A DNA stretch of 64,000 nucleotides from Chiloscyllium plagiosum. Taxonomy: Eukaryota. Positions 1,342-62,431 of this stretch are shown piece by piece (the first letter of the stretch is position 1; every line of letters begins with the position of its first letter). The stretch spans positions 10,982,911-11,046,910 of the forward strand of contig NC_057754.1 of the NCBI RefSeq assembly GCF_004010195.1. The letters are read 5' to 3'. Made by a program: the position numbers and the translations under genes. The notes under the pieces are model-generated. The model saw only the letters and a program-made list of their open reading frames with translations. It did not search any database and was not told where the DNA came from.

Positions 1342-1411
1342 CCGGAGCACCAACAATAGCAATAATGGGATAGCAAATGGCATAAAAGAGCCCTTTTGGT
1401 GCCCCATGCAT
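1342..1411 (-). CDS. First coding exon of a third GPR139-like class A GPCR paralog (main exon outside the window, below position 1)
   Basis: Reverse strand reads ATG...CCG G|GTAAGT and encodes MHGAPKGLFYAICYPIIAIVGAP. It is 70 nt with a phase-1 donor, the same length and architecture as exon 1 of the two complete paralogs, and has the same upstream 15-mer. Confidence 0.85.
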
Positions 1412-1485
1412 TGTCTGTTGGAAGCTGGAGGAGTTCCCGACGATATAGAGCAACACCACCAAAAAGTACGATATTTGTTCGAACT

Positions 1486-1500
1486 GAGAGTCTCCAGAGG
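1486..1500 (-). promoter_or_regulatory. Conserved proximal promoter motif CCTCTGGAGACTCTC (third paralog)
   Basis: Lies 75 bp upstream of the ATG; identical to the copy at 62417-62431. Confidence 0.7.
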
Positions 1501-2446
1501 TCCAAGTATTTTGCAACACGCACCTTAGTCACAGCTCGATTAACAGTCACAGTTTCATGATTTCTTTTTGTAATATTAGGAAAGCGAATAATATAATTGT
1601 ACTTTTGAACCAATGGGGTCAGTTAACTCAGTTGGCTGGACGATTGGTTAGTGATGCAGAGTGACACCAATACAATTGATCAAATTCCACATTGGCTGAG
1701 GTTACCATGAACGTACATGTTTCTCAATTTCTCCTATTGCCTGAGGGCTGGTGGCCCTTTGGTTAATCTCACCAGCAGTCATTTCTCTCTAACGAGAGGT
1801 GAGCTCTATGATCGTCTTGGACTTTGCAAATCTACCATTAACTGTGAGAATTAAGTGACTGCATCAGTGCCAATATTTGAAGTATGGCAGTTAAGTGTCA
1901 TGTTTCCTGTTGTTCTCAAATATGGAATAAAGGCTGCCGTAAGACCTGCTGCTCCCTGACCAAGAAATGTACTCTCTTGAAAGAGGAATTTTAGGTAGAA
2001 TGAGGCATACTCTGCACAACAGAAAGCGATATTTTGGGAGGAAAAATCCCTGATATTTATATCGTAGTGTCAGATGTATTGACCTTTCAAAATTGAAATC
2101 TCAGATATGATGTAGGAGGTGATAGTGCATGGCAGTGTGTTTGTATGGACTGACTGAACTGCTGCATCAGTGTGAGGTTCAATGCAGAGAGATGATCTTG
2201 GGGATATATCAAATAACTGTTTCCTCGTTTTTACCCAAAATGGCAGCAACTTGTCATTGAAACCTGGAGACGTTCTCCTCTTCAAAACAAAACAATCAAA
2301 AGCAAAGAAAAAGACAGGATATTCCTACTTTTGTAATGGACCCAACAGAACCACCTGCAAGTATATCAAGAAGGTAGCCTAGACACTAAATAGGTCATAC
2401 CACTCAGCATATAGCAAAACACTTTTTCTTTCTCCCAGTTACATTC

Positions 2447-2780
2447 GAATCATAGAAACTACAGTGTGGAAATAGGCCCTTCGGCCCAACAAGCCCATAC
2501 CAACATTCCGAGGAATAACCCATCCAGACCGTACCATATTATCCGGTATTTACCCCGACTAATGCATTTAACCTACACATCCCTGAACATTATGGGCAAT
2601 TTAGCATGACCAATTCACCCAAACTGCATATCTTTTGGGAGGAACCGAATCACTGAAACAGTACACACACAGACACGGGGAAAATGTGCAAACTCCAACG
2701 CAGATAATCTCCTGAGGTTGGAATCCAACCTGGGTCCCAAGCACTGTGAAGCAGCAGTGCTAACCACTGAGCCACCGTAC
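2447..2780 (-). mobile_element. HE1-type SINE
   Basis: Reverse-complement similarity to 50246-50563. Confidence 0.85.
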
Positions 2781-4484
2781 CAAATTGCAAACAGCAGAAA
2801 GAGGAATTGGTATAACTGTAACTGTATTAGAAAACTAAACTGAATAATACATTATCTAATGAATAAACGGCAAATATTCCAATTCAGTAACATTCCACAA
2901 ATACACACTTGGCAAATGCAAAGTCACTAGAATACATTGCCTCACATGAGATTCCAGCACAGAAGGAGAACTCAAAACTTTTACGTGTAATAATGAGAGA
3001 GAGAGACAGAAAACCTTGCCACCAACTTCCAACCCTCAACAATTACAGAAAGGTGAAACTTAGACTCTGGCTCACCAGCTTTTACTTTATTGGCTTGAAC
3101 TAGACAGCTCCATACCTATGACTCAAAACTTATCTTTAAAAATCAAGGACAAAATACCCATCTCAAAACTGTAGTATCATCATACTTACTTTATTTTATG
3201 TATTTTATTTCTTATCAGAGCGGCAAGAGATTGCACGCTTATCCAAATGGAAGTTTAAACAAAAGGAAGTAACGTTTTTGAAGATCACCAACATTTCTAA
3301 AGATTTTGGTTTGGGGCAAACCAAGATATTGTAGAGTTTTTACCTGTTTGCTTCATTGCGTTTGTCTTGCAGTATGATATGCGGGTACATCTTGGGCGGC
3401 AGTGTCTCTTATAGAAATGGTGTTGGAGCTCCCTAGTAGGCACAAGGCCAGCGTGGTTTCCTCCTGTGGTCAGAGTCCTTTTCTGTATGGATTTGGTAAG
3501 TGGTTGGATTCATTGTCAGTGCTTGTAATGGGCTATATCGCCATTAGAGAGTTGACATTTCAGTTCAGCCGCTCTTTCTGCAATAAGCCTGCATAAGGAT
3601 TGTTCTTTGATACTCACACTGAATGACTGTTGAACAAAATTTTAAAAATCATTCAATTGTTAGAAGACGCTAAAATGCCTCAAACACGGCACCTGATTAG
3701 CGAAAAGAAAAACAATCAGAAACCGAACAACTACAGGTCTCCAATTAGAAATGGGTCTCTGCTGTGATTTCAGTTCATGATGATGAAGTTGAGAAAAGGG
3801 CAGGTCAATGCAGATCTGCTTCCAGACTAAGATTGCTGCTGAGTTTAAGACACTCAGTGGTTAAGAGAAGGAGGAAAGGGGACAATATTGCATTTTCCTT
3901 GTCGAGTGAGAGACTGATGAGTGATATTGTCACCAGCTACTTACGAAATATTGTTCGGAGATGCTAATTTGATTACCAGTCGAGGATTGGCTGTCTCAAA
4001 GCAAAGAGCTCTTCAATTATCTCAGGGAAGGAATTATCTTCATTTCCCCATTATTCTCTCTGTCTCTTCTTATGTAGAGATTAATTAAATGCTTCAGAGA
4101 GATTCGATTTCTGCTATACTTCTAACTAAAAAAAAACTCATGATTTATATTGGAATTTGTCAAGCAATGAATTGACGCTATCATTAAACTGAGAAGGGAG
4201 TCTTATCTGTTTATTAATATTGAAATCTCTTTTCAGTTGTTTGATGCTGCCAAATCAGCATTTGGAATAGAGATTTGTTGGCTCCATTTGGGAAATCACT
4301 GAGGTCTCAAACTACTGGTACCTCTTGTCTCTTAATTATCAATGTCCTGCACATTAATTTGACTAACTGTGTCCAGTGATTTCATGCCCTCTTCATTTCA
4401 TATACAGCTCCTTCAGTTTTACTTATTATGAATAATGATGATATTAAAGACACTTACCATGAATATATATCCTGTTTATAGTCC

Positions 4485-10529: not shown

Positions 10530-10769
10530 CATTGGCATTTGGCTTCAGCGGTGTAGAGGTCAGTGCGCCAGACTACCACTGTGCCCCCTTTATCCGCTGG
10601 CTTAATGGTGAGGTTGGTTTAGAGCAGAGGGATTGGAGGGCTGCGCGTTGTGAGGGTGAGAGGTTGGAGTGGGGGAGGGGGGTCGACAGGTTGAGGCGGT
10701 TAATGTCCCGGCGGCAGTTGGAAATGAAGAGGTTGAGGGCAGGTAATAGGCCAGCGCGGGGTGTCCAGG
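10530..10769 (-). mobile_element. Penelope-like RT fragment
   Basis: - strand open frame ...SNLSPSQRAALQSLCSKTNLTIKPADKGGTVVVWRTDLY contains the PLE RT 'KPADKG' motif. Confidence 0.8.
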
Positions 10770-11016
10770 TGGAAACAGGCCATTCAGCCCATTGCGTTTA
10801 CACTGACCAGCCTAAGAGCATCCCACCCAAAACCACACCTTACCATTTTCCATGGCTATTGTACATGCACATCCCGAGGGCAGGTAATAGGCCAGCGCGG
10901 GGTGTCCAGGTGGAAACAGGCCATTCAGCCCATTGCGTTTACACTGACCAGCCTAAGAGCATCCCACCCAAAACCACACCTTACCATTTTCCATGGCTAT
11001 TGTACATGCACATCCC
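10735..11016. repeat. Perfect 141-bp tandem duplication
   Basis: 10735-10875 equals 10876-11016. Confidence 0.9.
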
Positions 11017-15134: not shown

Positions 15135-15927
15135 NNNNNNNNNNNNNNNNNNNNNNNNNNNNNNNNNNNNNNNNNNNNNNNNNNNNNNNNNNNNNNNNNN
15201 NNNNNNNNNNNNNNNNNNNNNNNNNNNNNNNNNNNNNNNNNNNNNNNNNNNNNNNNNNNNNNNNNNNNNNNNNNNNNNNNNNNNNNNNNNNNNNNNNNNN
15301 NNNNNNNNNNNNNNNNNNNNNNNNNNNNNNNNNNNNNNNNNNNNNNNNNNNNNNNNNNNNNNNNNNNNNNNNNNNNNNNNNNNNNNNNNNNNNNNNNNNN
15401 NNNNNNNNNNNNNNNNNNNNNNNNNNNNNNNNNNNNNNNNNNNNNNNNNNNNNNNNNNNNNNNNNNNNNNNNNNNNNNNNNNNNNNNNNNNNNNNNNNNN
15501 NNNNNNNNNNNNNNNNNNNNNNNNNNNNNNNNNNNNNNNNNNNNNNNNNNNNNNNNNNNNNNNNNNNNNNNNNNNNNNNNNNNNNNNNNNNNNNNNNNNN
15601 NNNNNNNNNNNNNNNNNNNNNNNNNNNNNNNNNNNNNNNNNNNNNNNNNNNNNNNNNNNNNNNNNNNNNNNNNNNNNNNNNNNNNNNNNNNNNNNNNNNN
15701 NNNNNNNNNNNNNNNNNNNNNNNNNNNNNNNNNNNNNNNNNNNNNNNNNNNNNNNNNNNNNNNNNNNNNNNNNNNNNNNNNNNNNNNNNNNNNNNNNNNN
15801 NNNNNNNNNNNNNNNNNNNNNNNNNNNNNNNNNNNNNNNNNNNNNNNNNNNNNNNNNNNNNNNNNNNNNNNNNNNNNNNNNNNNNNNNNNNNNNNNNNNN
15901 NNNNNNNNNNNNNNNNNNNNNNNNNNN
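15135..15927. other. Assembly gap (N run)
   Basis: Contiguous Ns. Confidence 1.
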
Positions 15928-16046: not shown

Positions 16047-18814
16047 CAGCAATAAAGTTTCAGCTTTGATCTCCAGCGTCTGCAGACCTCACTTTCTCCT
16101 CCGCATAGTGGATGTCCCTCAAGTGAGTTAGTTTGTTCGACTGTCAAGTTTTAAACAGACAGAATTTATTTACAAAATTACGGAACGAAGCACAAAGAAC
16201 ATAAAATAGAATAACAGATAGCTTATCCTATGCAAACCAGAGTTAATGATGCTGTTCCGAATATACTTGCAATAGTCCAACACAAAGAGTAAAAATGACA
16301 CAAACAGCTTACAAGTTGCGAGGTCAGTAAGGTAGAAAGAAATAGAGAGAGCTTCCAGTTTCAATTGTAACTTGACTCAACTAATCCCGGAACTGAACAG
16401 AACTGGACAGTGAGAGATGGCCACGCCCCCTTGATTATACCAGTTTTGTTTTAAAGACTTGGAAACTTTTAGCCTGAAGCACTATCTGTTAGGTATAAAC
16501 AAAAAAAAACCCAATGAACCATTCAAACTTCAGACATGATGAAAACTTGGGTGTCACCTCCTCGAAAAAAACTCAAGGGCACAGGAACTATGCAAAAAGA
16601 CCAACATTCTGACACCTCCCCCCTTAAGAAAGTGAACCATCAATATTCAAAGATGGCTTCACTTTTCAAGCCTTCCCTCCACCAATCAATTAGCACTTTA
16701 AACACACACATAATCACTGACTATAAGCATGCAAACATGCACGACAACATTCGGATTCAGTCTGTGGTTCTCCCACCACCGAAAACCTCAGTTTCTCATT
16801 CAAGTCTCGATAATGCATTGACAATCACGTTTTTTTTCGACATGCTACATGCAGAGTTGTCAAATTGAATAGTAGTAATAACAAACTCCATATAAACAGT
16901 CTGGCATTTTTGTCCTTAAATTTCTCTTTAAATTTCAATGGGTTATGATCAGTGTATATGATAGTCTGAGACGCGTTGCTTGGTAGGATAAACACTGAAA
17001 TGTCGTAGTGCCAGCACCAAGTTTAAAGTCTCTTTCTCAACTGGCGAATGTTCCTGCTGATGAACGTTCAACTTCCTGGGGAAATACCCAATAAGTCTTA
17101 TTGTTGTCTCGTCATCTTCCTGCAGGAACATGTCGCGGACACCCACATCACTCGCATTGGGAGCCACCTTGAAAGGCGTTGTGTAATCTGGTGTGTCGAA
17201 TACCGGGGCAGTAATTAACACAGTTTTCAGGCTGTCAAATGCCTTCTGACAGTCTGCTGTCCACTGAAATATTTTGCCTTATTTGTTTCGCAGTCCATTA
17301 AGTGGAGGAGCCACACTGCTAAAATTCGGCACAAACTTTTGCTAAAATCCACTCAATCCCAGGAACAACAATACTGTTGTTTTGTTTTTTGTCGATGGTG
17401 TGGGAAATTCCCCAATTACTTCCGTTTTTGCATCATTTGGGACCATTTGTCCATTTCCAATAACATGACCCAGGAAGTGACTTGGACTTTGGCAAATTTA
17501 CTTTTAGCTAGGTTTACCACCAAGCCTGCCTTTCGAAGTCAACTCAACAAGTCCAATAAGTATTGTAAATTTTCCTTCCATGAGTGACGGACAATCACCT
17601 GGCTATCGATGTAAACAAAGTTGGGCAAACCAACAATAACCTCATTGGTTCGTCCCTGAAATGGGGCTGGACTGTTTTTCATACCAAATGGCATGACTTC
17701 AAACTAATACAGTCCATCTGGCTTTACAAAAGCCGAAATTGCCTTTGCTCTTTTTGACAAAGGAACTTCAGTAGCCTCTGAAACCGTCCAACGTAGAAAT
17801 GCAAGTTGCTTGCCCCACTTTTTCAACACAGCCTGCTAACCACAGAACTGGATATGCATCAGTTCTTTGCAACTGCATTGACTTTGTGATAGTCCACACA
17901 TAATCGTTGAGTACCATCTGGCTTTGGCACCATTACTATGGGTTAGCTCCAGTCACTGTAACTCACTTTGATTATGTCATCTTGGTGCATGTGTTCTGTC
18001 TTCTTCTGAACCTGTGCCAACCTTAGAGGGTTATGCCTATAAGGATGTTGCTTAATCAGAGCAGCATCGCCTATATCTATATCATGCACTGGTAGGTTAG
18101 TATTTTCCAGTTTCTTTCCGCATATCTCCACATGTGATAGTCGCAACTCTTTCAGGACATTTTGATTGTTCTCAGGAAGGTAACCTATCCCAATTTTTGA
18201 CAACTTCCTCATTGTCCAATTTAATTTGGGGAATGTGCAATTCAGAATCCTCTGAATTTGGTTCTTCCTCCTGTGTTGTAATCATCAACACCTTCTCCTC
18301 TTGCTTTCCTTCCCTGTCAAAATACCTTTTGATCATATTCACATGACATACTCTGTGAGATTTCTTTCTGTCTGAAATCGCTATCAAGAAGTTCGCCTCA
18401 TTCAATTGCCTTTCGATTTGATAAGGGCCACTACCCCTTACGTATAAAGGTTCACATTTACTGGAAGTAACACTAATACCTTATCCCTGATAGCAAAATT
18501 GCGAATTTTTTATTTCTTTTCCATTTCCTGTTTCATTGCATCCCGCAATATTGTTAAATGCCCTCGAGCCAACTCCCCAACTCTATTTAATCATTCTCTA
18601 AAATTTAACCCATAGGCCATTTGTGTGGTCTCTAAATTCTGAGTTTCCAATTTCTCCTTCATCAATTTTAATGGTCCTCTCACGATATGCCCAAAAACTG
18701 AGTCAAATGGACTGAATTTGGTCGATTCATTTGGTGCATCTCTGATTGCAAAAAGAACAAACGGAATTCCTTTATCTCAATCATTTGGATTGTTTTGAGT
18801 GTTAATCCTCAACA

Positions 18815-19100
18815 AGGGTTACACGGTGGCTCAGTGGTTAGCACTGTAGCCTCACAGCACCAGGGACACAGGCTCGATTCCAGACTTTGTGTGGAGTTTG
18901 CACGTTGTCTGCAGGGGGTTCGTGCAGGTGCTCCCGTTTACTCTCACAATCCAAAGATGTGCAGTTCAGGTCGGTTGGCTAAATTGCCCAAAGTGTTAGG
19001 TGCATTAGTCAGAGGGAGGTGGATCTGGGTGGGTTGCTCTTCAGAGGATCAGTGTGGACTTGTTGGGCTGAAGGGCCTGTTTCCACTCTGTAGGGAATCT
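18815..19100 (+). mobile_element. HE1-type SINE inserted in the Gypsy integrase
   Basis: CACGGTGGCTCAGTGGTTAGCACTG head and V-domain. Confidence 0.85.
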
Positions 19101-20163
19101 AAAAAAAGCATGATATTGATTGTTTGATGCACTTCCTGCGATTCTGAATGGGACACAATAGATTTGAATTGTTTTATGCCTAAGCTGTCCATAACTTCCT
19201 TGAATAATTTGAATGTGAAGTTTGAGCTTTGATATGACTGTATCTCTATTGGTAGTCCGTATCTAGTATACAATTTGAGTAATCTGCAATCCTTTTAGCT
19301 GTGATATTGCGCAATGGAACAGTCTCTGGAAATCTCGTTGATAAATCCATTATTGTTAACAAATACTGATTCCCACTCTTTATTTGAGGTAGATAACCTA
19401 CGCAATCAATTAAGACTCTTGTAAAAGGTTCTTCAAATGCTGGAATAGGTATTAAAATCCAGGTTTCATTACTGCTTATGATTTTCCAATTACCTGGCAT
19501 GTATGACACGTCTGACAAAATTCAACTATAGCCTTGTGCAGTCCAGGCCGGTAAAAATGCGTTTGTAATTTCGCCTGTGTTTTCATCCCTCCTAAATGAC
19601 CTGTAAGTGGCTCCTCCTACGCCGATTGCAACCCCTCCTTGCTATCCCCCACTGGCAATATGATTTGATGAATTTCTGACCTTTTCTTATCTGCTTGAAT
19701 ATGTGATGGTGTCTACTTACTTATTTTAATAAAATAATTTTTCACTAATAACACACAGGGGTACATTCAGAGCTCTTCTCTACATATGCCTTTTGATACA
19801 ACTGGTTTAAATTTTCTTTTTTTTTTGCTGCAGCTCAATGCGTTTTTCAGAGGTAAAGATACTTGCATGGTTATTTCTTTGCTCCTGTTTTATCTCAACT
19901 ATCTGATCGAACACAGTCTCTGCTAATGCCACTTCAGCTTCCTTATCAATACCATTTGATGTCCCCTGTTTCAACCGGTGAATCTATGACCTCGTTACGA
20001 CACAATCAGGGATAAGCGTCCTGCATTGCTTCAGTTGTCTGTTTCTCCACTGGCTTATTAACTACAGTAGGCAGCACGCCTACTGGTGAATTAGCGATAC
20101 AATTTGCAAGGACAAATTGCATTCCTGCAGCTGAGAGTTTGTCCAGTACTCCAACCACAAATT

Positions 20164-22639
20164 GCTCCGCAAACCTTGAATTCCTCACCATCAAATGCAG
20201 CCCCTTTTATCGACCACAGGAATTTACCATTGCTATACTAACTGCTGTGTATATGCTGCCACAAGCAAAGTTTGAGGAAGCTCTGGACATGCTGCATTCC
20301 ACCACTAACACCTTGGAGACTGAACACCCCGAGGCTCTGTTTATTGCAACTGGCGACTTCAATCAAGCCAATCTAAGGAAGGTGTTGGCCCAAATGCCAC
20401 CAGAACATTACCTGCCCCACTAGGGACCTCAACATTTTAGACCACTGCAACACCACTGTGAAAGATGCTTACCACTCCATCACCTACCCTCATTTCGGGA
20501 ACTCAGGCCACAATGCCGAGTTTCTTCTCCCGGCTTACAGGCAAAAGCTCAAGCAGGAGATCCCCACACAACCCCACCCCCACCCCGCGGATACAGGGCC
20601 AGTGCTGGTTGGAGGAAGCAGAGGATAAACTCTAGTGCTGTCTGGAATCGGCTGATTGGGCCATGTTCAAACAGTCTGCAGGTACCTTGGACGATGAAGC
20701 CACCACCATCATAGACTTTATCAGCAAGTGTATGGAGGACAAAGTACTGAACAAGTCAATCCGGGTGTTCCCCAACATAAACCCTGGTTGAATCAGGATA
20801 CACAGAACCTGCTTGACGCCTTCAGATCAGGAGACCCACTCAAATATTAAGAATGCAAGAATGACCTTCGCAGAGCCATTAAAACAGCCAAGGGTCATTA
20901 CTGATCCAAACCAGAGACCCAGACAGATACCCAGCGAATAGAGCAAGGACTGAATGACATCACAGGTTCTCAAAAGAGACAGTGCAAGATAGCAGATGAT
21001 GACACATCCCTTCCAGATCGTCTCAACGCCTTCCATGCTCGCTTTGAGCAGAATTTTAGTGGAGAGGTAACGCCTATTCAGACAAATCCTGATGAAGCTA
21101 TCCCAACAGTCATTGTATCAGAGGTCAGATCAGTTTTCCTTCGTGTGTATCCAAGGAAAGTGATGGGACCAGATGGAGTACCAGGCTGTGCACTCAGAGC
21201 ATGCGCAGATCAACTGGCAGAGGTCTTAGCAGACATCTTCAAACTGTCCCTGCAGCAGGCCACTGTCACTGCATGTTTCAAATGGGCCAACATCAACCCT
21301 GAGCCTAAGAAGTCTCATGCAGCATGTCTCACTGACTATCGCCCAATGGCCCTAACTTTGGTTGTCGTGAAGTGCTCTGAAAGGCTGGTCATGGCATTAA
21401 TTAACTCCAGCCTCCCCACTACTCTTGACCCACTCCAATTTGCCTATCGGGCCAACAGATCCATGTGAGATGCCGTATCACTTGCCCTTCACTCCTCCCT
21501 AGAACATCTTGACACCAAGAACAGCTATGTAAGAATCCTACTCATTGACTACAGTTCAACCTTCAACACTATTATCCCCTTGAGACTGATTATTAAATTT
21601 AGTGATCCCAGACTAAGCCCTACACTCTGCAACTAGATCCTCACTTTCCTGACCCACAGGCCCCAATCAGTGAAGATTGGTGACAATATTTCATCCTCAC
21701 TAACACTCAACACTGGAGCCCCCCCGGGGTGCGTACTCAGCCCCCTACTGTATTCACTGTATACCCATGACTGCTTCACCAAATACCAGACTAATGCCAT
21801 TTACAAGTTCGCTGATGACACCCCCATAGTCAGCCGATTCTCAGATGGTGACGAAACGACTACAGACGGGAGGTGGAAGACCTGGAAAAATGGTGCACTG
21901 AGAACAACCTATCTTTCAATGCCGGCAAAACAAAGGAATTCATTATTGACTTTTGGTGGATGTTACTCATGCCCCCTACACATTAACAGCACAGAGGTAG
22001 AACTAGTGGAGAATGTCAAGCTCATGGGTGGTCATCAACAACAAGTTTTCGTGGACTCTTCATGTGGACGCACTGGTTACAAAGGCCCAACAACTCTCTT
22101 CTTCCTCAGGCAGCTGAGAAAATTTGACATGACGGCGAATATCCTTGCCAACATTTATGGGTGCACCATTGAGAGCATTCTGTCTGGATGTATCACTACC
22201 TGGTATGGCGTTGGTACCATTCAAGATTGGAGACGGTTACAGAGAGTGGTGAACTCGGCCTGGACAATCACAAAGGCCAACCTCCCATCTATTGAATCCA
22301 TCTACCAGGCCCGCTGTCAAAGAAAGACCGCCAGCATTCTCAAAGATCCATTCCACCAGGCAATATTTTTCTACAATCTCCACCATGTCGAAAAGGTACA
22401 GAAGCCTGAACACACACACTAGCCATTTCGAAACAGTTTCTATCCTACTGGTGTTCCAATACTGAACAGGTTCACAAACACTTAACATTCACCTGTACCT
22501 GTGTTTTTGCTTTTGCCGCTGTTTTTGTATTATTTACTTATGTATGCTACTTAACTCTGTGAAGTGCCTGTATTGCCCACAAGACAAAGCTTTTCACTGT
22601 TTCTCAATAAATTCAATCCAGTTCAATATAATTCAAATT
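20164..22639 (+). mobile_element. 5'-truncated Rex1/Babar LINE inserted into the Gypsy pol
   Basis: Endonuclease LEFLTIKCSPFYRPQEFTIAILTAVY...GDFNQANL; RT DYRPMALT, LDPLQFAYR, GAPPGCVLSPLLYSLYTHDC, KFADD; AATAAA and an (ATTCA)-like tail; flanked by CAAATT. Confidence 0.88.
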
Positions 22640-24899: not shown

Positions 24900-27160
24900 A
24901 ATTGTTCGGATTCCAAGTTGTTCGAACAATAGGGCATTCGGATTCCGGGGTCATCACTGTATTTAATTAGGAAAGTGGGAATTACAATTCTATTAGGCAG
25001 GAACTGTGGAACATAAACTGGGAAGAGATATTCTGAGGGAAACGCACAACAGAAATGTGGAGTTTGCGTAGGGAGCACTTGCTGTGAGTGTTGGATGGCT
25101 TTGTCCCACTGAGGCACGGAAGGGGTGGTAAGATGAAGAAACCTTGGATGACAAGAGGTGTGGAACATCTCGTCATTAGGAAGAAGGAAGCTTACTTAAA
25201 ATTGAGGAAGCAAGGATCAGACAGAGCTCTAAAGGGTTACAAGGTAGGCAGGAAGGACCTGAAGAATGGGCGTTGGAGAGCTGAAAGGGGGCATGAGAAA
25301 GCCTTGGGGGTAGGATTAATGAAGATGCCAAAGCGTTCTACATTTATGTGAGGAACAAGAGGTTGACCAGAGTGAGGTTAGGGCCTATCAGGGGTAGTGG
25401 AGGGTACTTCTGCTTGGAATCAGAGGATGTAGTGGAGGTCCTTAATGAATACTTTGCTACAGCATTCACTCGTGAGAGGGACCTCGTCGTTTGTGAGAAC
25501 AATGTGAAACAGGCTGATATGTTCGAATAGTTTGATGTTAAGAAGGAGGATGTGCTGGAAATTTTGAAAAACATGAGGGTGCTGGAAATTTTGAAAAACA
25601 TGAGGATCGATAAGTCACCTGGGCCAGACAGGATATACGTAAAGTTATTATGGGAAGCAAGCGAAGAGATTGCTGCATCTTGACGATGATGTCTGCATCA
25701 TCACTGTCCACTGGAGTAGTATCCGATGATTGCAGGGTTGGCTATCTTATTCCCTTGTTCATGAAGGGGAATAGAGATAATGCTGTGAATTAAAGAACAT
25801 TTAGCCTTCAGTCGATGATGGGCAAATTCATGGAGATGATTGTAAGCGACAGGATTTGTGATTATATTGAAAAGCATAATTGCTTTATAGATACTCTGCA
25901 TGGCTTTGTGAGGAGTAGGTCAGACCAAACAAGCCTGATTGCATTCTTTGAGGATGTGACAATACACATTGATGAAGGTTGTGCAGTGGATATTGGTATA
26001 TAGATTTTAGCATGATGTTTGATAAGGTTCCCCGTGGTAGGCTAATTCAGAAAACAAGGAAGCATTAGACGCACGTAAATTTCGCTGTCTGGATACAGAA
26101 AAAGCTGGCCCATAGAAGACAGAGAATGGTACTAGATGGAAAATACTCACCCTGGAGCTGGGTGATCAGTGGTGTTCTGCGGAATCTGTTCTGGGACCTC
26201 TGTTGTTTGTGATTGGTATAAATGACTTGGATGAGGAAGTAAAAGGGTGGGTTAATATATTTGTCAATGACACGAAGGTTAGTGGAGTTGTGTATCGTGT
26301 GAAAGGCAGTTGTAGTTGCAACGGAACATTGACAGGGTGGAGTCGTGGCTGATGGAGTTTAAAGTAGAAAAGTGTGAAGTTATTCATTTTGGAAGATCGA
26401 ATTTGAATGCAGGGAATAGGGTTAAAGGCACGATTCTTGGCAGTGTGGTAGAACAGAGGGATCTTGGGGTCCACGTCCATAGATCCCTCGAAGTTGCCAC
26501 CCAAGTTGATAGGGTCGTTAAGAAGGCATACGGTGTGTTGGGTTTTATTAGCTGAGGGTATTGAGTTGAAGGACTGCGAGGTTATGCTGCAGCTCTATAA
26601 AGGTCTTGTTAGAATAGACTTGGAATATTGTGTTCAGTTCTGGTCACCTCTCTAAAGGAAGGATTGGAAAGCTTCTGGGAAAGTGCAGGGGAGGTTTACC
26701 AGGATGCTGCTTGGACTGGAGAAATTGTCTTTAGAATAAAGCTGGAGAATGCTGGAGGTTCTCTCGTTGTAACGAAGAAGGATGAAAGGTGACTTGACAG
26801 AGGTGTACAAGGCGATGAAAGGCATAGGTAGAGTGGACAACCAGAGACCTTTTCCAAGGATGGAAATCGCTATCTTGGGGGGCATAATTTTAAGATGATT
26901 GGAAGAAGATTTTGAGTGGAGATTTCAGAGGTAGGTTCTTTACACAGAGAGTGGTGAGTCCATGGAATGCACTGCCTGCAGTGGTAGTAAAGTTAGATAC
27001 ATTAGGTACATCTAAGTAACTCTGAGATAGACACATGGGTGATAGTAAAATGAAGGGTATGTTGCATAGTTTGAACCTAGAGTAGTATAAAAATTGGCAC
27101 AACATCGAGAGCAGAGGGGACTCTGGTGTGATGTACTGTTCTATTATCTATGTTCTATGA
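24900..27160 (+). mobile_element. CR1 LINE, decayed ORF2 and 3' end
   Basis: Motifs KKPWMT, VLNEYF, HGFVR, KCEVIHFGRSN, QRDLGVHVH, LEYCVQFWSP, and a TATGTTC-type tail. Confidence 0.88.
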
Positions 27161-27307
27161 AAGATTGCCAATGCTAGTGGGGAGAGTCAATTTGAGGTTA
27201 TGTCCAGATTAGCCATAAAGTAATTGAATGGTACAGTAGGCTCATAGAGCCAAATGGCATACTTACATTGCTAATCAGTGCAGTCACATATTCTTATGCA
27301 TCTTTGT

Positions 27308-27563: not shown

Positions 27564-27662
27564 AATCATCTTGTGGATGTGACAAGTTGTCGGCATAATA
27601 ATGTGAGACAATCTGTTTCCTCATCAAATTCTAGCTGAAGTGCAAGTCAAAATTTAATTATG

Positions 27663-27689
27663 CCTCAGGAGACTCTCACTCTATATAAA
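27663..27689 (+). promoter_or_regulatory. Conserved promoter motif CCTCAGGAGACTCTC plus TATA box (TATATAAA, 27682-27689), paralog A
   Basis: 14/15 match to the motif of the other two paralogs, about 80 bp upstream of the ATG and preceded by TTAATTA. Confidence 0.7.
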
Positions 27690-27757: not shown

Positions 27758-27827
27758 ATGCATGATCCGGCAAATGGACCTATTTTTGCCATTTGTTATC
27801 CAGTTATCGCTATTATTGGTGCCCCTG
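27758..27827 (+). CDS. GPR139-like class A GPCR, paralog A, exon 1 (N-terminus and first part of TM1)
   Basis: ATG CAT GAT...GCC CCT G|GTAAGT encodes MHDPANGPIFAICYPVIAIIGAP and splices in frame to the acceptor at 28225/28226, giving GAPANL. Confidence 0.9.
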
Positions 27828-28225
27828 GTAAGTAGTGGATAGAAAATGAAAAATGTGTTTGAAATATAGCTATTTTCATTCAGGACAGGGCCAAGTTTTA
27901 CTCACGTTTAATACAATCTACGTGTATGAGATTTCAGCCAGGTTTCAGCATATTTCAGTGAATTGAATGATAGAACGTTGTGTTCTGATGAACGACAGTG
28001 CATAATCTGTTTATTAAGAAACATTGTGAAAAATGTTATGCTGTATGAAAGGATGTCCTTTTCTTTGATTGCTGGAGTATTAACTGCCAGCAATTAACAA
28101 AAGTTGAGAGCAGTTAATCTCTGGATAAGGAAAATGGGCGGATCTGGAGTAACAGACTAAATGACACAGAAGCTGAATTGAAAATAGTCCTTTTGTAAGA
28201 ACTCATCTCTCCTGATCTCTTACAG

Positions 28226-29127
28226 CCAATTTGATGGCGATTGTAATCTTATGCCGAGGACGATGTGGACTCTCACCATGCATGACTTGTTATTTGGTGG
28301 CAACAGCCGTAGCTGATTTCTTTGCCATCGTCTTTGGCTGCATCCTCAACCGTATCAGTGGCATTTATTTTCGGTACAGCATCTTGTCCACCACACCGTT
28401 ATGCTCTCTCAGCCTTGTACTGATTCGGTGCACACGAGATGTCTCAGTCTGGCTAACAGTGGCCTTCACCTTTGACCGTTTCATAGCCATCTGCTGCCAG
28501 AACCGAAAGGCCAATTACTGCACTGAGAGAAATGCATCGCTGGTCACAGGAATAGTTTGTGCGCTGAGCTGTATCAAAGATATCCCTTTCTACTTCATTT
28601 TTAAGCCCTTGTACATCCTGGAAGGGGTTGCCTGGTTCTGTGACATTAAGATGCCTTTTTATACCTTGCCATTTTGGCAGGTCTACCACTGGATGGATCG
28701 CATCTTGACCCCATTTCTTCCGTTCTTCCTTATTTTGTTGCTCAATGTCTTGACGGTCAGGCACATCCTAATAGCCAGCAAAGCTCGTCAGAGGCTACTG
28801 GGTGCCAGGAATTGTGGAGACACGGAAATGGAAAACCGCAAGAGGTCCATTGTCCTACTGTTTGCCATCTCATTCAGCTTCCTCCTCCTGTGGGCCACTT
28901 ATGTCGGACATTTCCTCTATGTGCAAGTTACAGGTGAGGGTTACTACAGCGGCCAGGATTCCACTGACCTACGTTTCATCCTTCAAGAGACAGCAAACAT
29001 GTTCCAGTTACTCAATTCCTGCAACAACGTTTTCATCTATGTAATATCTCAGAACAAGTTCCGAGAAGAACTGAAGAAGTTGCTGTTGTGCCCCTTCACG
29101 TCCTGCACTAGATGCTTTAAACGGTGA
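28226..29127 (+). CDS. GPR139-like class A GPCR, paralog A, exon 2 (323 aa in total)
   Basis: Pyrimidine tract and TTACAG acceptor, then an uninterrupted ORF with rhodopsin-like TM segments: YLVATAVAD (TM2), SVWLTVAFTFDRFIAIC (TM3), ECL2 WFC, PFLPFFLILLLN (TM5), LLLWAT (TM6), NSCNNVFIY (TM7), FREEL (helix 8). These motifs resemble GPR139/GPR142-family receptors. Confidence 0.93.
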
Positions 29128-35445: not shown

Positions 35446-36249
35446 TATGTCTGCGATTCTTGGCACCCCGGACCCTCTGACGGGTTTTGTTGGCTGCTAA
35501 GGCATATCTGATCATCTGGACGTTGAGAAGCAGAATATGGAAGAATGGCAGAAATGGGATTAAGTTGCCAAACAGCCAGTAGTATCCATGCTAGAAGACC
35601 ACTTGTATAACGTGATCCTAATGTCACTAAATCAGAGCACTTCTTCCAGGATGTACAAGGGCTTAAAATGACTTTGAAAGGGCTATGTTTGACACAGTTC
35701 AGTGCACAAACTATCCTTGGGACTAGCGATGCAGTTCTCTTTGTGCAGTATCTGGCATTTAGGCTCTAGCAGCAGATAGCCATGCAATGGTCAGCAGATA
35801 TGCATGAGGCTGAGAGTATATAACGGAATGATAGACAAGGCACTGTACCAAAAAGAGAGATGGTTATAGTAGATGACGGTTGTAGTTTTAACTGGTAAAG
35901 TCTGCTGTTCATAATTTCTACCAGCACATAAAATATATTCATGTTTTTTTTTGAAATGCTGATTCCTATTAAGTACAGAAACCCGGTTCATGTTTTCTGT
36001 TAACTCAGAATTAACAGGTGAAGAGGATATTCTGCGAATATTGACATAATCTTCAACCTCTAACTCCAGTTAGAGTGGAGTGTGGCGCTAGACAGACATT
36101 CCACTCATACAGTTATGTTCATAAATGTAAATATTTAATTGTGCTCTGTCTTCGGAGGAATAACTGCGCCTCTATCTCTACTATTTGATCACCCATTGAA
36201 ATTTGATTCCCCATTTCCAAAGTAACATGCAGTACAATGGGAACTTCAT

Positions 36250-42800: not shown

Positions 42801-45180
42801 GCATGACAAAAGGTAAGGCCTCTGTGCTGATGGGTTTTATCCTAGGATTCGCTAGGAAGCTAGGGAGGAGACGACAGAACCGTTGGCTTGGATATTTATA
42901 TCGTCATTGTCTACAGGAATAGTGCCAGAAGACTGGAAGATGGAAAACGTTGTCCCCTTGGTCAAGAAGGGGAGTAGGGACAATCCTGGTAATTATAGAC
43001 GAGTGAGCCGTACTTCAGTTGTGAGTAAAGTGTTGGAAAGGATTATAACAGAAAGGATTTATAATCATCTAAAAAGGAGTAATTTGATTAGGGATTGTCA
43101 ACACGGTTTTATGAAGGGTCATGCCTCACAAACCTTACTGAATTCTTTGAGATGGTCACCAAACAGGTGGATGAGGATAAAGCTGTTGATGTGGTGTGTA
43201 TGGATTTCAGAAAAGCGAATGATAAGGTGCTGCACGGTAGACTATTGTACAAAATGAGGAGGCATGGGATTGAAGGTAATTTAGCGGTTTCGATCAGAAA
43301 TTGGCTGGCTGAAAGAAGACAAAGGGTGGTGGTTGATGGGAAATTTTCATCCTGGAGTTTAGTTAATAGTGGTGTACCGGAAGGATTTGTTTTGGGGCCA
43401 ATGTTGTTTGTTATTTTTATAAATGACCTAGATGAGGGCATGGTTTAGTAAATTTGCGGATGACACTAAGGTGGCATGTGGACAGTGCTGACGGATGTTG
43501 CAGTTACAGCTGGACATAGATAAGCTGCAGAGCTGGGCTGAGCGGTGGCAAGTGGAGTCTATTACGGAAAAGTGGGAGGTGATTCACTTTGGGAGAAGTA
43601 ACACGAATACAGAGTACTGGGCTAAAAGTAAGATTCTTGGTAGTGTGGGAAAGCAGAGAGATCTCTGTGTCCATGTAGATAGAAGCCTGAAAGTTGCCAT
43701 CCAGGTTGATAGGGTTGTTAAGAAGGCATGCGGTGTGTCAGCTTTTCCTGTTAGAGGGTTTAGGTTTCAGAGCCATGAGGTCATGCTGCAGCTGTACCTA
43801 ACTCTAGTGCAGCCGCAGTTGGATAATGCGTACAGTTCTGGTCGCTGCATTATGGGAAAGACATGGATGCATTGGAAAGGGTGCAGAGAAAATTTGCCAG
43901 GATGTTGCCTGGTATGGAAGGAAGGGCTTATGAAGATAGGTTGATGGACTTGAGGCTGTTTTCATTTGAGAGAAGAAGTTTGGGAGGTGACTTAATGGAG
44001 ACATACAGGATCACCAGAGGATTAGATAGAGTGAACAGTGAGTGCCCTTTTCCTTGGATGGTGTGGCTTGCACGAAGGAACATAGCTTTAAATTGAGGAG
44101 TGATAGATATAGGACGGATGCCAGAGGTACGTTCTTTACTCAGAGAGTAACAGTAGTAGTCTCGCCAAATGTAAGGGCATTTAAATGATCATTAAATAAA
44201 CACATATATCATAATGGAATAGTGTAGGTTAGATGGGCTTCAGATTGTTTTCATGGGAAATCAAGGGCCGAAGGGCCTGTACTGCCCTGTAATGTTTCAT
44301 GTTCTGAACTCTAATGTTCTATGATGTTACAAGAAGAGAGCGAGAAGAACGAAAGACCATTTTTTTGTGGAGGAAATTGGACATTCACCAACAGAACTTT
44401 ACACAATTGAGAAGGAGACTTTGAGCTTGGTCTTGGCATTACAAAATTTGATGTACCAGAGACACTTATATAAACTGATCGCAGCCCATTAAAGTTTTTT
44501 TGGAAAAAAAAGGCAACAAAAATTCCAGACTGTTTAGATGGAACTCATTACTGTAGCCATTCGATTTGAAAATTATACATGTGGCAGGATGAGAAAACGT
44601 AATTGCTGATGCATAGTCGAATCTTGAAATAAAAGAAAGTGGAAGCATTTGGTGGCAGGAGTAAATGGATTGAAACAGAATGCCAGAGTGCATTATTTGC
44701 ATACTTAGAGACAATGTAATATATATTTGTTGTATTATACTAACAAAATAAGACTAATGGGTTTAAAATGAAGCCATCTTTGTATACTGACAGTTCAGTT
44801 TTATTTTTAAAGAGGGGAAGTGTGACAATGATGTCATGCTGGCAAGGTTATTTTATCCTTTTTTATTGAAGAGAGCTCATAATTACAGAGATGCCGATGA
44901 GTCAAAGGAGTTTAATAATGGAAGGGAAATGTTCAGTTCTCCTAGTTCAGTTTTTTTTTCTAGTTTGTTTAGCTGTAACAATCATAAAATGTGTGAATCC
45001 AGGGAGTTCCAAACTTCCGTGAAGAAATCTTCTGACTTTCTTCTGCCATCCCTTTGGATGTCGCTCTCTCCTGCCTGTAAAAATCTGCGCTTGAATTTCC
45101 TTTTTCTTTCCAAGAGGTGTGTTTATGGTATGCTATTGTATTGGAACAGTTAATTTGTAATTGTTACTGTATTATGATTT
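39900..45180 (+). mobile_element. Decayed Gmr1-like Gypsy element (LTR remnant, integrase C-terminus, RT, RNase H, PPT, 3' LTR from 44821), split by a CR1 insertion
   Basis: Integrase FSPFELVLGHEVRRPL precedes RT (LDLLRRYWQ, VYIDDL) and RNase H (FKVAIDASD, then EKETLSLVLAL after the CR1). PPT AAGAGGGGAAG abuts TGTGACA. Homologous to the - strand element at 16.1-19.6 kb. Confidence 0.85.
42160..44322 (+). mobile_element. CR1 LINE nested in the Gypsy RNase H region
   Basis: [63 protein letters not shown]; 3' tail near 44320. Confidence 0.9.
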
Positions 45181-52590: not shown

Positions 52591-52592
52591 AC

Positions 52593-58166: not shown

Positions 58167-58172
58167 TTTATT
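58167..58172 (-). terminator. Candidate polyadenylation signal of paralog B
   Basis: AATAAA on the - strand about 740 nt after the stop codon. Confidence 0.3.
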
Positions 58173-58907
58173 TTAAAAATTGTGTTAGAATGCAGAAAAT
58201 GAGGAATAAACTCCTGAAGCTTGAAGAATTCAACAACGGCTTGCAAATCGACAGGAAATAGGATGTTGAACATGGAGCGACAACAATAATGCTGTGCACA
58301 GCATTATTGAAGACAATTATATCATTGAAGATAGTTCTTACCAAAAAGACATTGAGCAGCATAATAAGGAGAAATTGGAGAAAGGGTCATAAGGTGTGAC
58401 CCAGCTAGCCATAGTTTTAGCAGTTAGGAGAAACACAATCGATAGACTTGACAATGCAGAACGAGGGCACGCCAGGCAAGCACTTAAATGAATATCATAA
58501 TATTTTCGTTTGGGTCCTGTCAAAGTGAATGAAAGCGCGAAAAGGAGATTGGCCAGATTATGATATTGAGACAACACAAAAAGGGGAGCGAAAGAGAAGA
58601 GGCGGGAGGAAGGAAAAGTGGGAAATAAATACAGAAAAGATTGAAAATTAGTCTATAGCAATGGAGTCTTGGAGTACAGACTGATGACTGAAAGCATGGC
58701 ACAGCATCAATTGTTTAAAAATACAGCAGGTCCAGAAGTTACACAATCCTTTAGTGTTGGCAACACAACAGAGAACTGGCGAAACTGGAGACTGAGCTTT
58801 TCATAACCATAGTGGACCAAATTGAATGAAAACCCTGATGCAGGTTTGTCAGCTGAGATACTGCTGATAGCAGAAAAAGGAAAATATGAGACTACTGCTT
58901 GGTCTTT

Positions 58908-59809
58908 TCACCATTTTATACAACTTCTGAAGGTGGTGAATGGAAAGATTAGCACGTTCTTCAGCTCTTCGCGGAATTGTTTTTGGGCTACAGTGTAGAT
59001 CAAGATATTATTGCAGGAACTGAGGAATTGGAGCATGATAGCCGTCTCTTGAAGGATATATTGCGGGTCATTGAATTCCAGGCCACCAAAGTAGCCATCA
59101 CCTGAAATCTGCACGTACAAGAAACGTCCAACATACGTGGCCCACAGGAAAAGGAAGCTGAGAGAGACCGCAACGAGTAGTACAATGGACTTCTTGCGGT
59201 TGGACACTTCCTGGTCTGCACGATTCTCGGCGCCCCGGATCCTCTTGCGCGCTCGGTTGGCTGCTAATATGCTACTTATAGTCAGCACATTGAGCAGCAG
59301 AATGAGAAAGAAAGGGAAAAACGGTACTAAGATGTGATGCAGCCAGTCGTAGGTTTGCCAGAAAGGCGAATTATAATAGATTGATTTAATAATGCAAAAC
59401 CAGGGCACGCCGTTCAGGTTGTACAATGGCCTAAAAATGAAGTAAAAAGGGATGTTCTTGATGCAGCTCAGGGTACACACGATTCCTATCACTACTGAGG
59501 CCGTTTTCTGAGTACAATATCTGTTCTTCATGCTCTGGTGGCAGATGGCCACGAAACGGTCGAAGGTAAAGGCCACCGTCAACCAGACTGAGCCATCTCG
59601 GACTGCAAAAATCAGAGTACTGCTGAGTCTGCATGCAAAAGTGGTGCCAAGAGCAGTGTCTCGAAAGTAGATCCCGCCGATCCGGTTAAGGATGCACCCA
59701 TTGACGATGACAAGGAAATCACTCACCGCTATTGCCACCAAGTAGTAGGTGATGCAACAAGAGAGTCCACACCGACCTCGTTTTAGAACGACAATCGCCA
59801 AGAAATTTG
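58908..59809 (-). CDS. GPR139-like class A GPCR, paralog B, exon 2 (323 aa in total)
   Basis: Acceptor TCTCTCACAG|CA AAT TTC TTG. The 902-nt exon equals paralog A exon 2 in length and aligns to it without gaps (TFDRFVAIC, WFC, LFLWAT, SSCNNILIY, FREEL). Confidence 0.93.
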
Positions 59810-60914
59810 CTGTGAGAGATGAGAAAGGAATTGTTTGCTACAAGTGTATTTTTTTGGTGAAACTTTAGTAGTAATCTTCGACCAAATTTTAACTATAACC
59901 TTCTACGTTTCTCAACTCTAGACATCATCGATTCCAAAGCTATTGATAATTATCTGACGTGTAATGCTGGATCAATTACTTCCCATGGTAAGAGACATTG
60001 CAATCAGTCCTCAGCATACACTCCGTTCTCTGCTCACTGCATTAATTACTGTGGCTAGTTACCAAACTAAAATCATCTCAGCCAGTTACTTCCCGTGATC
60101 ATATGCATAAAACACCTCATGTACTCGTCAAACATATGTTCACTGATGTGCAGTAACTTTCCAAATTATCTTCGATATTGTCTTTTTTTCAACTGACTCC
60201 TCACTCAATCGTGAGTGCAGGAATGTTCAATTTTTTTTTGTAAGATTTAAGTACTGTACTGACACATTAGCACATTCTTTACTTCCTCAAGGATTTTGTT
60301 TTTTCCAAGCTATTCTGGGGAGAAACATTGCCGAGTTTACTTTCCACTTTGGACCAGGTACTAAAGCACACACTGAGTATGTGAATATTAAATGTCACAA
60401 ATTCATTATTTTAATGTTTATCAGAATAAAGACAAAGAAAGGACTTTAAAAAGGCATCATACATCAACTCACAATTTCTGGCTGACAATGCATCCTGTCA
60501 CTTTGACAGAAATTCTTCTGTCTATTCTTTTTATTGGGTGCCTGGATTCTATGTATCATTGCTAAGTCATTACTTTGGTTTTCAAGCAATCGAAACATAT
60601 AATCATTCTCATCCCTGACCACCTAATGTTTTGATTATGCAGAAAAAAAAATGATTGCTCTCAGATCTTCGACGCACGTGAACGTTCAAACTTCCCAAGT
60701 TAGGTCATTGTCCTCTTATTTTCTGATTGGTCTCTGAAGATCTCAATCATTTATAGGAACATCCTTCTCAACTAAGTTATTCCTTTTGTTTACCAAGTTT
60801 ACAGCTCTGGACATATCGACAGAGTTGCAGCATCCCATCTTCTGAGGAAGGTAAGACTGGGGTTTAAATCACAACTACTCTAGCAGTGTGCAACAAGATT
60901 TCTGAAAGTATTGA

Positions 60915-61990
60915 TAGAAAATAGAATATAGAACAATACAGCACAGAACAGGCCCTTCGGCCCACAATAAAAAAAAACTACTCTCACTCCACATTCCTCT
61001 CCTTCCCAGAAGAGACATCTTGATTTTTGGCACCAGCTGTACGAAACAGATTTCAAGTCTTTCAGTCTTTGGGGTGGTAAGCCCTACTATCTCCCTCCCA
61101 ATTTGCTCTCTTCCCTTATCACTATGACTTTCTCTTCGTGCTTCATTTGAATGGCGCTCCTGACCATGATTCCTAATGTGTTTCATTTATCCTCCCGGTA
61201 CTCTGTAGTCTCATTCATACTGAGAGCAAATTCCTCTACATACGAGATAAAAGTACAGCTGATGCTCCAGTAAAGCTAAATTCTGCATCCTCTCGTGGCT
61301 CCCTCATTCGCTGTCACACCCTCCTGTCTCTAAGTGTGATTGACTGCACAAGCTGTATTTAAGCATATTCATCCATCACTGATGTGTTGCAGTGCCTACA
61401 GCTCAGACTCCAGATCATCAACTCTCTTCTAACTGTCGCTGCACTGGTGTCCAGCAGTTCTCATATCCTGCACCTTCAACACATCACCTGCTCAGGTATT
61501 TCTAATTACTTTATTAAATGGAATTGAAATAAGGTTGAATGTCTTAACTGTATTCTTCAGTTAAATTGAAGTCTCTGATTTAAACTAATTAGCCAATTGC
61601 AAGTTTGGTGTGATGGCACATATTAGCTCTTTCAGAAAGAAACAAGCTGGAACGTCTTTCTGTCAATGATTGTTTTTTTCTCTCTCTCCCAGTATCACTG
61701 TCCTTTTCACGCAAGTTACACAACATCTTTCCGATAGGAAGGAGACTAGAACTGCACGCAATATTCCAACAGTGGCCAAACCAATGTCCTGTGCAGCCGC
61801 AACATGACCTCCCAACTCCCGTACTCAATACTCTGACCAATAAGGAAAGCATACCAAACGCCTTCTTCACTATCCTATCTACGTGCGACTCCACTTTCAA
61901 GGAGCTACAAACCTGCACTCCAAGGTCTCTTTGTTCAGCAACACTCCTTAGGACCTTACCATTACGTGTATAAGTCCTGCTAAGATTTTA
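60915..61990 (-). mobile_element. CR1 fragments within the intron of paralog B
   Basis: QVCSSLKVESHVDRIVKKAFGML (61918-61850); CR1 3' tail near 60915-60970. Confidence 0.65.
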
Positions 61991-62262
61991 GCTATCTAAT
62001 AAACACCATTCCCGTTAAGTTGCACCATTATCAATCAGACAGTATCTTGTGGTATCCCGTAAGGTAATTCAAAGTAACATGCCATATTTGTTCATGGCAT
62101 AGTATAGTATCCTCCAACACATTTGTTTACAGTAACAATTATTCGAATTTTCTTACGTCCAGGCAGTGATGAATATCAGAAGAAAATCCTGATCCGGACA
62201 GGGAAGATACAAAATATCCGATATTTATAACATACGAACATTTTAAAGAATCCGTTTCTTAC

Positions 62263-62332
62263 CAGGGGCACCAATAGCAGCGAGAATAAGATAGCAAATG
62301 GCAAAGATACGCCCATTCGCTGGCACGTGCAT
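62263..62332 (-). CDS. GPR139-like class A GPCR, paralog B, exon 1
   Basis: Reverse strand ATG CAC GTG...GCC CCT G|GTAAGA encodes MHVPANGRIFAICYLILAAIGAP; 70 nt, phase 1; intron 59810-62262. Confidence 0.88.
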
Positions 62333-62416
62333 CCTGTTTTCAGAAAGAATAGGTGTTCCTAAAGCAGTTGATCTTTGCATTATGTCGTATTGAAATCATC
62401 CAACATATATTCCAAA

Positions 62417-62431
62417 GAGAGTCTCCAGAGG
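62417..62431 (-). promoter_or_regulatory. Conserved promoter motif CCTCTGGAGACTCTC, paralog B
   Basis: Lies 85 bp upstream of the ATG, preceded by GCAAATTAATCC and followed by AATATAT. Confidence 0.7.

Follow-up and report, generated by a model that had tools for sequence, protein, structure and literature searches.

The vertebrate receptor families OR, TAAR, V1R/ORA as well as V2R/OlfC are defined by olfactory expression. Cartilaginous fishes have 6–13 OR, 3–5 TAAR, 2–4 V1R and 8–43 V2R genes per species (PMC10116579). In the mouse, olfactory-receptor enhancers carry an Lhx2/Ebf composite site, the Ebf half of which tolerates pyrimidine and purine runs at fixed spacing, and the promoters of the receptor genes are enriched for Lhx2 and Ebf sites separately (PMC5608512). 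The Caenorhabditis srw genes are chemoreceptor candidates evolving by birth and death, kin to the myosuppressin and FMRFamide receptors and proposed as sensors of environmental peptides (PMC2576165). These two receptor types, with the MIP and proctolin receptors, are the protostome sister group of the clade of GPR139 and GPR142 (PMC8557429). Here we describe three genes (A, B and C) found in, or starting in, a window of the genome of the shark Chiloscyllium plagiosum, the window being the whole stretch of 64,000 nucleotides (nt) analysed, on contig NC_057754.1. They encode class A G-protein coupled receptors (GPCRs) whose nearest named human relatives are GPR139 and GPR142, and they belong to a cartilaginous-fish multigene family that, judged from sequence, most likely consists of odorant receptors. 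We hold with moderate confidence that it is an unrecognised olfactory receptor family.

The three genes are intact and specify 323 amino acids each, with pairwise identities of 63–66%. Gene B lies on the plus strand: exon 1 (27758..27827, 70 nt) is followed by a phase-1 GT-AG intron of 398 nt (27828..28225) and by exon 2 (28226..29127, 902 nt including the stop codon), which encodes the remainder of the first transmembrane helix (TM1) through the C-terminus. Gene C is built in the same way on the minus strand, with exon 1 at 62263..62332 (70 nt), a phase-1 GT-AG intron of 2453 nt at 59810..62262 and exon 2 at 58908..59809 (902 nt including the stop). Gene A, also on the minus strand, has its exon 1 at 1342..1411 (70 nt, that is, 23 codons plus one base, with a GT donor) and its exon 2 outside the window, 9,933 nt downstream of exon 1 (contig C45, first base 10974318; loci L012/L031). 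This second exon again measures 902 nt; joined to exon 1 it gives an intact protein, and it is 66% identical to its counterpart in B, and likewise to that in C. The initial annotation had seen three paralogs of identical architecture, two complete proteins aligning without gaps at about 60–65% identity, and probable dead copies between the genes. All three points hold, the gap-free alignment of B and C having 207 of 323 positions identical (64%). The dead copies are two decayed exon-2 fragments on the minus strand: about 400 nt at 35449..35854, 75% identical to B and with stops and frameshifts, and about 130–150 nt at 58330..58479, covering the second extracellular loop (ECL2) to TM5, with stops and lying directly 3' of gene C. 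No exon 1 was found for either fragment.

The family to which these genes belong is very large. Searches were made in one genome of 3.56 Gb (G000; contigs labelled C1, C2 and so on). With the gene B protein as query, the best 130 of 7,916 candidates, those that were scored, were all at least 50% identical to B; a distant relative as query gave at least 117 family matches at 30–38% identity, 14 of which were common to the gene B list. A hand count (105 + 107 − 14) puts the distinct stop-free exon-2 matches at 198 or more. Short motifs reach further: a TM3 motif has 447 exact matches genome-wide and 2,898 with up to two mismatches, a TM6 motif has 1,980 and a pattern spanning the end of exon 1 and the splice donor 2,857, both with up to one mismatch, and the reversed-pattern control gave 0 for each of the three. 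The TM3 motif is present within two mismatches in 58 of 58 protein-search loci examined; the figure of 2,898 is probably an undercount, since only 22 of 30 loci picked by the TM6 motif fall within that limit. These 30 loci, the first zero-mismatch TM6 matches in genome order, 23 of them on contig C8, comprise 14 that pass a test of intactness (two slightly short at the C-terminus), two more with a full open frame and 14 broken copies. Scaling by 16/30 would give roughly 1,000–2,000 open exon 2s in the genome, an estimate for exon 2 only from a small, local sample biased to well-kept motifs. Small contigs carry 25 of 130 and 21 of 118 listed matches, among which there may be redundant haplotypes. 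An origin of the motif counts in a repeat element appears unlikely: among the zero-mismatch matches inspected, translation yields family sequence at 30 of 30 loci picked by the TM6 motif and family exon 1 at most of the exon-1 loci.

Family clusters lie on contigs C7, C8, C17, C37 and C43–C49, among others; the repertoire is large, clustered and subject to birth and death in the manner of olfactory-receptor-type families. The lineage-specific expansion proposed in the initial annotation is real and far larger than guessed there, with about half of the sampled copies broken; thousands of related loci were found, most of them in clusters. A large subfamily (L094–L123 and L164–L181, on contigs C1–C8) has a long N-terminus that consists of copies, variable in number, of a repeat of 14 residues (42 nt) and contains several ATGs in frame and some sequons for N-glycosylation. 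At 18 of 18 exon-1 loci of this subfamily, a search over 9.4 kb found no exon 2, the introns being apparently longer than this and, as far as the sequence tells, homologous between copies. Public protein models, several of them incomplete, fuse this long exon 1 to a seven-helix (7TM) domain of the family. The likeness of the copies over many kb of intron points to large segmental duplications.

The best 120 of 1,177 database homologs all come from sharks, rays or unnamed sources, and most bear the automatic name "probable G-protein coupled receptor 139"; no OR, TAAR, V1R or V2R name occurs among these 120. The closest public protein to the family query is 98% identical (Hemiscyllium ocellatum), a chimaera homolog is 47% identical, and the family is present in sharks, rays and chimaera. 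The same shark genome has separate GPR139 (L062) and GPR142 (L063) genes with one motif match each, against the thousands of the family; they were named by likeness to the human GPR139 sequence, GPR142 by elimination. A third GPR139-like paralog, the coelacanth type (P0233, P0287–P0404), is likewise auto-named GPR139 and occurs in sharks, coelacanth, teleosts, amphibians, turtles and squamates/lizards, with none from mammals or birds among the best 120 matches listed. Two of its models are named TMEM183A, which suggests a neighbour gene. This genome has one match to it among those listed, L032 (C26:36600769-36601743). A fourth, amphibian type (P0226, P0405–P0424) is represented by a single gene in each listed amphibian species (20 clusters), and a sturgeon protein, left out of the tree, is 46% identical to it. 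The coelacanth and amphibian types are the closest relatives of the family, and the literature examined yielded no function for either.

A careful maximum-likelihood (ML) phylogeny of 70 chosen rows places the family in one clade (support 97/88), with the chimaera row nested inside it. Its sister is the amphibian gene (99/97), the coelacanth type comes next (100/99), and GPR139 and GPR142 fall outside; the vertebrate rows group together (98/92) against the invertebrate rows, with one unnamed row (P0264) among the vertebrates. A clade of the family with GPR139, a grouping named before the tree was made, is rejected (approximately unbiased (AU) test, p 1.9e-5; log-likelihood lower by 152.7). The identity of gene B is 24% with GPR139, 23% with GPR142, 27% with the coelacanth type and 28% with the amphibian gene. 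Every type examined in this genome, including the coelacanth type in its shark copy, has a phase-1 intron just before the Asn of TM1, and the acceptor of this intron has the same position in GPR139 (L062), L032 and most of 58 family loci (in seven, the scripted pick was 3–15 nt off). From the tree, the AU rejection, the identities and the common intron, the family is its own branch of the GPR139/GPR142 clade, predating the split of cartilaginous and bony fishes. Some bony vertebrates have retained it in few copies, and its amplification came before the separation of chimaeras from elasmobranchs. The view of the initial annotation that these are not GPR139 orthologs is borne out by the separate genes, the identities of 23–24% and the phylogeny including GPR139 and GPR142 that it had called for.

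The proteins have the features of class A receptors. The two complete in the window score 72 and 81 bits against Pfam 7tm_1 (cut-off 30.5) and remain below the cut-off for 7tm_4 (C, 25.1 vs. 27 bits; B, no match); with 7tm_1 alone passing, the family has no sequence membership among OR, TAAR, V1R or V2R, its lineage being the GPR139 clade. Some members give weak Srw/Srx profile matches and the birth-and-death expansion resembles that of srw, which is an independent nematode expansion whose function is itself a proposal. For a close relative (P0003), AlphaFold with a 55-row alignment confidently predicts a seven-helix receptor with an ECL2 hairpin, the mean predicted local distance difference test score (pLDDT) being 86.8. 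Compared with solved structures, the model matches peptide receptors and GPR139 at a template modelling score of about 0.7, a comparison by fold that does not tell GPR139 apart from other peptide receptors; by sequence, the best solved-structure match is human GPR139 (E 2.6e-6). Residues were surveyed in 69 exon-2 sequences from the same genome, with numbering assigned by us. The class A activation motifs are kept: D2.50 in 67, D3.49/R3.50 in 69, P5.50 in 68, W6.48 in 60 and Y7.53 in 68. Some canonical class A residues are lost, P6.50 being kept in 4 and P7.50 in 13 of the 69, and position 4.50 is mostly Cys. A C3.25–ECL2 cysteine pair is present in the family and missing from shark GPR139. 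The ratio of nonsynonymous to synonymous substitution rates (dN/dS) is 0.22–0.28 among A, B and C, and 0.18–0.56 in 29 of the 31 pairs whose dS is <0.6; of the two that remain, one is a duplicate locus and the other a near-identical pair. The family is under purifying selection, with ongoing duplication and gene death.

The putative ligand pocket is variable. At 26 positions that we take to form the generic class A pocket, entropy is 1.87 bits vs. 1.34 bits at other helix positions (p 0.0015), and the most variable regions of all are the third extracellular loop (ECL3) and ECL2. In GPR139, Trp and Phe are bound by F3x33, H5x43, W6x48, R6x51 and N7x38 (PMC5430874). The family shares W6.48 and, in 44 of 69 sequences, an aromatic residue (F/Y) at 3.33; N7.39 occurs in 27 and H5.42 in 7, position 5.42 being D in 36, R is absent from the five commonest residues at 6.51, and E3.32 is also not among the common residues. 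The site is not kept as a set, so Trp and Phe are unsupported as family-wide ligands. The initial annotation had argued from these ligands of GPR139, which is a weak argument with R6.51 not kept and H5.42 and N7.39 in the minority. D3.37 (63 of 69) and E7.36 (50 of 69) are conserved, and acidic residues like these in the pocket may point to amines or other ligands bearing an amino group. The frequent D5.42 resembles the amine-binding aspartate of teleost clade III TAARs.

Among the window genes and eight other loci, most carry TAATT(A/G) followed by a pyrimidine-purine block about 85–105 nt before the ATG, with a TATA-like box after it. A promoter motif common to the window genes had been noted earlier; its exact 14-mer stands upstream of A and C only, and B has a variant of it at the same place. 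The motif is part of a larger element, an Ebf-type site that often has a homeodomain site 1–2 nt ahead of it and is followed by the TATA box. The patterns used to find this element, TAATTR-NN-YYYY-NN-RRRR for the composite and TCCC-NN-GGGA for the Ebf-type site, were taken from one mouse composite (the Sfaktiria probe) and the Ebf site of OMP (PMC5608512, supplement 7). Gene B has the only perfect composite match in the window (27655-27672, plus strand), with a TATA-like box at 27685-27689, the whole element spanning 27655..27689. The site of gene A (1491..1508, minus strand) has one mismatch and lies 97 nt before the ATG; that of gene C (62422..62439, minus strand) lies 107 nt before it and has two mismatches, both in the homeodomain half. 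A short repeat of very high copy occupies positions 27300-27563, about 90 nt 5' of the gene B site.

The patterns were then applied to held-out promoters. In 40 new upstream stretches of 7.1 kb, exon 1 was located by protein profile in 29 and not found in 11; one already-seen promoter was dropped, leaving 28 promoters of 150 nt. The composite, with up to one mismatch, occurs in 10 of the 28. Among control windows taken at the same loci it is present in 13 of 397, and among shuffles in 16 of 560; reversed, the pattern matches 1 of the 28 promoters. With up to two mismatches, the Ebf-type site is present in 23 of 28 promoters vs. 97 of 397 controls. When the spacer of the composite is varied from 0 to 8 bases, the 28 promoters give 6, 7, 10, 4, 5, 2, 1, 1 and 2 matches. 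In a distant subfamily, whose promoters had been seen before the test, the composite is found in 9 of 27, mostly on the opposite strand, vs. 11 of 132 controls. The p-values of these promoter comparisons are too small, because the promoters are related by descent. The composite joined to the TATA box at a 13-base gap, which was fixed from three known promoters, has 40 genome-wide matches vs. 1 for the control; at a 12-base gap there are 1 and 2, respectively. For at least 19 of the 40, one of 27 picked family exon 2s follows within 10 kb downstream, three of these 19 having been seen earlier and two of those three having served to fix the gap. The promoter sites are retained where their flanks diverge. 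In sum, predicted Ebf (O/E) and homeodomain sites of the kind expected of olfactory receptors are enriched in held-out promoters of common ancestry. The coelacanth-type gene L032, one gene whose transcription start position is not established, has neither a composite nor an Ebf-type site within 400 nt of its ATG.

A second element lies further upstream in several subfamilies (L094–L163), a forkhead-like TGTTT(G/A)(T/C) followed by a TAAT-type site; it occurs in 10 of 28 promoters vs. 49 of 397 controls. The main element agrees with the mouse Greek Island composite in having TAATTR, two bases and a pyrimidine-NN-purine block, as in the Sfaktiria probe (PMC5608512). It differs in its place, since the predicted family sites belong to the core promoter, some 14 nt ahead of the TATA box, whereas the mouse composite is more a feature of enhancers than of promoters, and the spacing in the family may be one base shorter. 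With OR, TAAR, V1R/ORA as well as V2R/OlfC the family has in common clustered birth-and-death evolution, a nearly single-exon coding region, a variable pocket, Ebf and homeodomain promoter sites and, in most subfamilies, a short N-terminus; it differs in its GPR139-clade lineage, and its olfactory expression is a prediction.

Of the public runs listed as containing gene B, none is of RNA. Gene B was recovered with few differences in three public runs (X1, X2 and X4), which are DNA, because the intron is covered and no exon joint occurs. Single-base differences from the window at 28117, 28664 and 28735 are probably alleles or assembly errors. A single-cell run from an unspecified tissue (X5), of which about 2 in 100 reads were examined, gave no gene B reads, which says nothing for one gene among thousands. 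Two Logan-derived proteins that were checked start inside exon 2 and so show no splicing. In the catshark, the olfactory neurons are arranged in a nearly unbroken monolayer and are without exception Go+ and TRPC2+; a probe for v2r1, a putative co-receptor, labels 5.9 cells per mm, the other probes 0.45–2.8 (PMC10116579). We estimate the monolayer at about 100 cells per mm, so that 0.45–5.9 labelled cells would leave most neurons without an assigned receptor.

Several points speak against an olfactory role. No transcript of any family member was seen among the runs examined for gene B. Ebf and TAAT-binding factors are also active in other neurons and in B-lineage cells, and GPCR paralogs often vary more in the outer pocket, which by itself is no sign of external ligands. 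The 28 promoters are related by descent, and 8 of the 10 with a composite match seem, judged from exon 1, to belong to one broad subfamily; the composite is absent from 18 of the 28, and perfect matches to it number 4 of 28 with a spacer of 1, against 2 of 28 with the spacer of 2 known from the mouse. The pattern itself was built from one mouse example and the wording of the paper, not from its weight matrix, and the mouse composite marks enhancers more than receptor promoters (PMC5608512). The catshark study concludes that shark olfaction relies essentially on V2Rs and that a small V2R set is enough (PMC10116579). The top 50 genes of a catshark brain and olfactory library include no GPCR (PMC11979771), an absence expected for any sparse family and one that would exclude V2Rs too.

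Four other explanations have to be weighed against odorant reception. The genes might be a chemosensory family outside the nose, comparable to T2R or Mrgpr arrays and at work in taste buds, in solitary chemosensory cells, or in those trigeminal and dorsal-root neurons that sense the surroundings of skin and mouth. Birth and death and a variable pocket fit any array for external ligands, and Ebf and homeodomain factors are active in other sensory neurons. However, adjacent homeodomain and Ebf sites are a described hallmark of olfactory receptor regulation, and olfactory coding is a better match for a repertoire of a thousand or more than taste or itch, whose known arrays count tens of genes; we regard this explanation as unlikely. 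Slightly less likely still are immune or barrier receptors of leukocytes or epithelia, diversified by microbes like the FPR, MRGPRX or chemokine types. EBF1 is the B-cell factor, and the N-terminal repeat of variable length in one large subfamily is of a kind that would be common at host-pathogen interfaces. In addition, immune genes are reported to abound on the small, fast-evolving chromosomes of sharks (PMC7677710), which may overlap with the present clusters. Against such a role, no "receptor 139" entry occurs among 8,645 cluster-marker rows for liver, spleen and kidney cells of the bamboo shark (PMC11372145, supplement), a table that does carry, e.g., gpr160. This is weak counter-evidence, since expression of one gene of thousands per cell would never give a marker.

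The expansion could also be mostly passive: segmental duplication of repeat-rich regions would have multiplied a receptor of neuromodulatory or gonadal function that happened to lie there, and most of its copies would be redundant. The broken half of the motif-picked loci, the many kb of intron alike among long-N-terminus copies and the share of matches on small contigs, where haplotypes may be redundant, agree with this. The dN/dS values, the subfamilies common to rays and chimaera and the promoter sites kept amid diverged flanks do not, and we consider passive amplification quite improbable. Finally, the database names would make these genes GPR139 co-orthologs sensing L-Trp and L-Phe in the brain. 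The NCBI name on most entries, the best solved-structure match and the common intron position speak for it, but as orthology it is refuted by the separate GPR139 and GPR142 genes, the low identity, the AU test and a binding site not kept as a set; we give it hardly any credence. Odorant reception thus remains the reading that we prefer, and a chemosensory role in general is supported indirectly by copy number, pocket variability and the olfactory-type promoter.

If the family is olfactory, Lhx2 and Ebf would bind its promoters in olfactory sensory neurons, and each gene would be expressed sparsely, in a subset of the neurons of the shark olfactory epithelium, which are microvillous (Go+, TRPC2+). 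Each receptor may then bind its own water-soluble small ligands or short peptides and signal via Gi/o or Gq, phospholipase C (PLC) and TRPC2. Whether the family is the main odorant-receptor repertoire of sharks, rays and chimaeras, with a thousand or more intact genes drawn from the GPR139 clade and brought independently under Lhx2/Ebf one-receptor-per-neuron control, seems to us evenly balanced.

The space between the receptor genes of the window is filled with decayed retroelement fragments carrying frames like those of reverse transcriptase, assigned by eye (16100-19500, 20905-22419, 25000-27150, 33400-35450 and 40500-44150); the first pseudogene fragment adjoins one of them at about 35450. 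There is an assembly gap of 793 bases at 15135-15927. Near-perfect tandem duplications of 141 and 155 bases, at 10735-11016 and 34390-34700, may be assembly artefacts.

Full-text searches, whose coverage leaves out most subscription journals, found no description of the family in the literature, and it goes unmentioned in the available parts of PMC11979771, bioRxiv 2025.06.08.657570, PMC10620051, PMC13320880, PMC8455134, PMC7677710 and PMC12208981. One of these genome and review papers remarks instead on a relative paucity of GPCRs in cartilaginous fishes. The supplements of bioRxiv 2025.06.08.657570, a survey of tandem clusters, may list the family, and both these and those of PMC11979771 may bear on novelty and expression. 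The genes are already in public annotation, hidden under one misleading automatic name.

By its sequence, the family appears to be a system resembling chemoreceptor arrays that stands outside all known vertebrate olfactory receptor families. If not olfactory, it would to our knowledge still be among the largest GPCR expansions of vertebrates. Expression of the sister gene in amphibians and sturgeon could show the ancestral role of what was expanded in sharks. If olfactory, the family would add to the odorant receptors of vertebrates a set that evolved independently, would make it possible to test in nature whether gene choice by Lhx2/Ebf has arisen around another receptor type as well, and would be a source of targets for shark repellents. 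It would also resolve the paradox that sharks have large olfactory organs yet only a few dozen known olfactory receptor genes, and, if it is indeed their main repertoire, would put an end to the idea that the sense of smell of cartilaginous fishes depends on a few dozen V2Rs.

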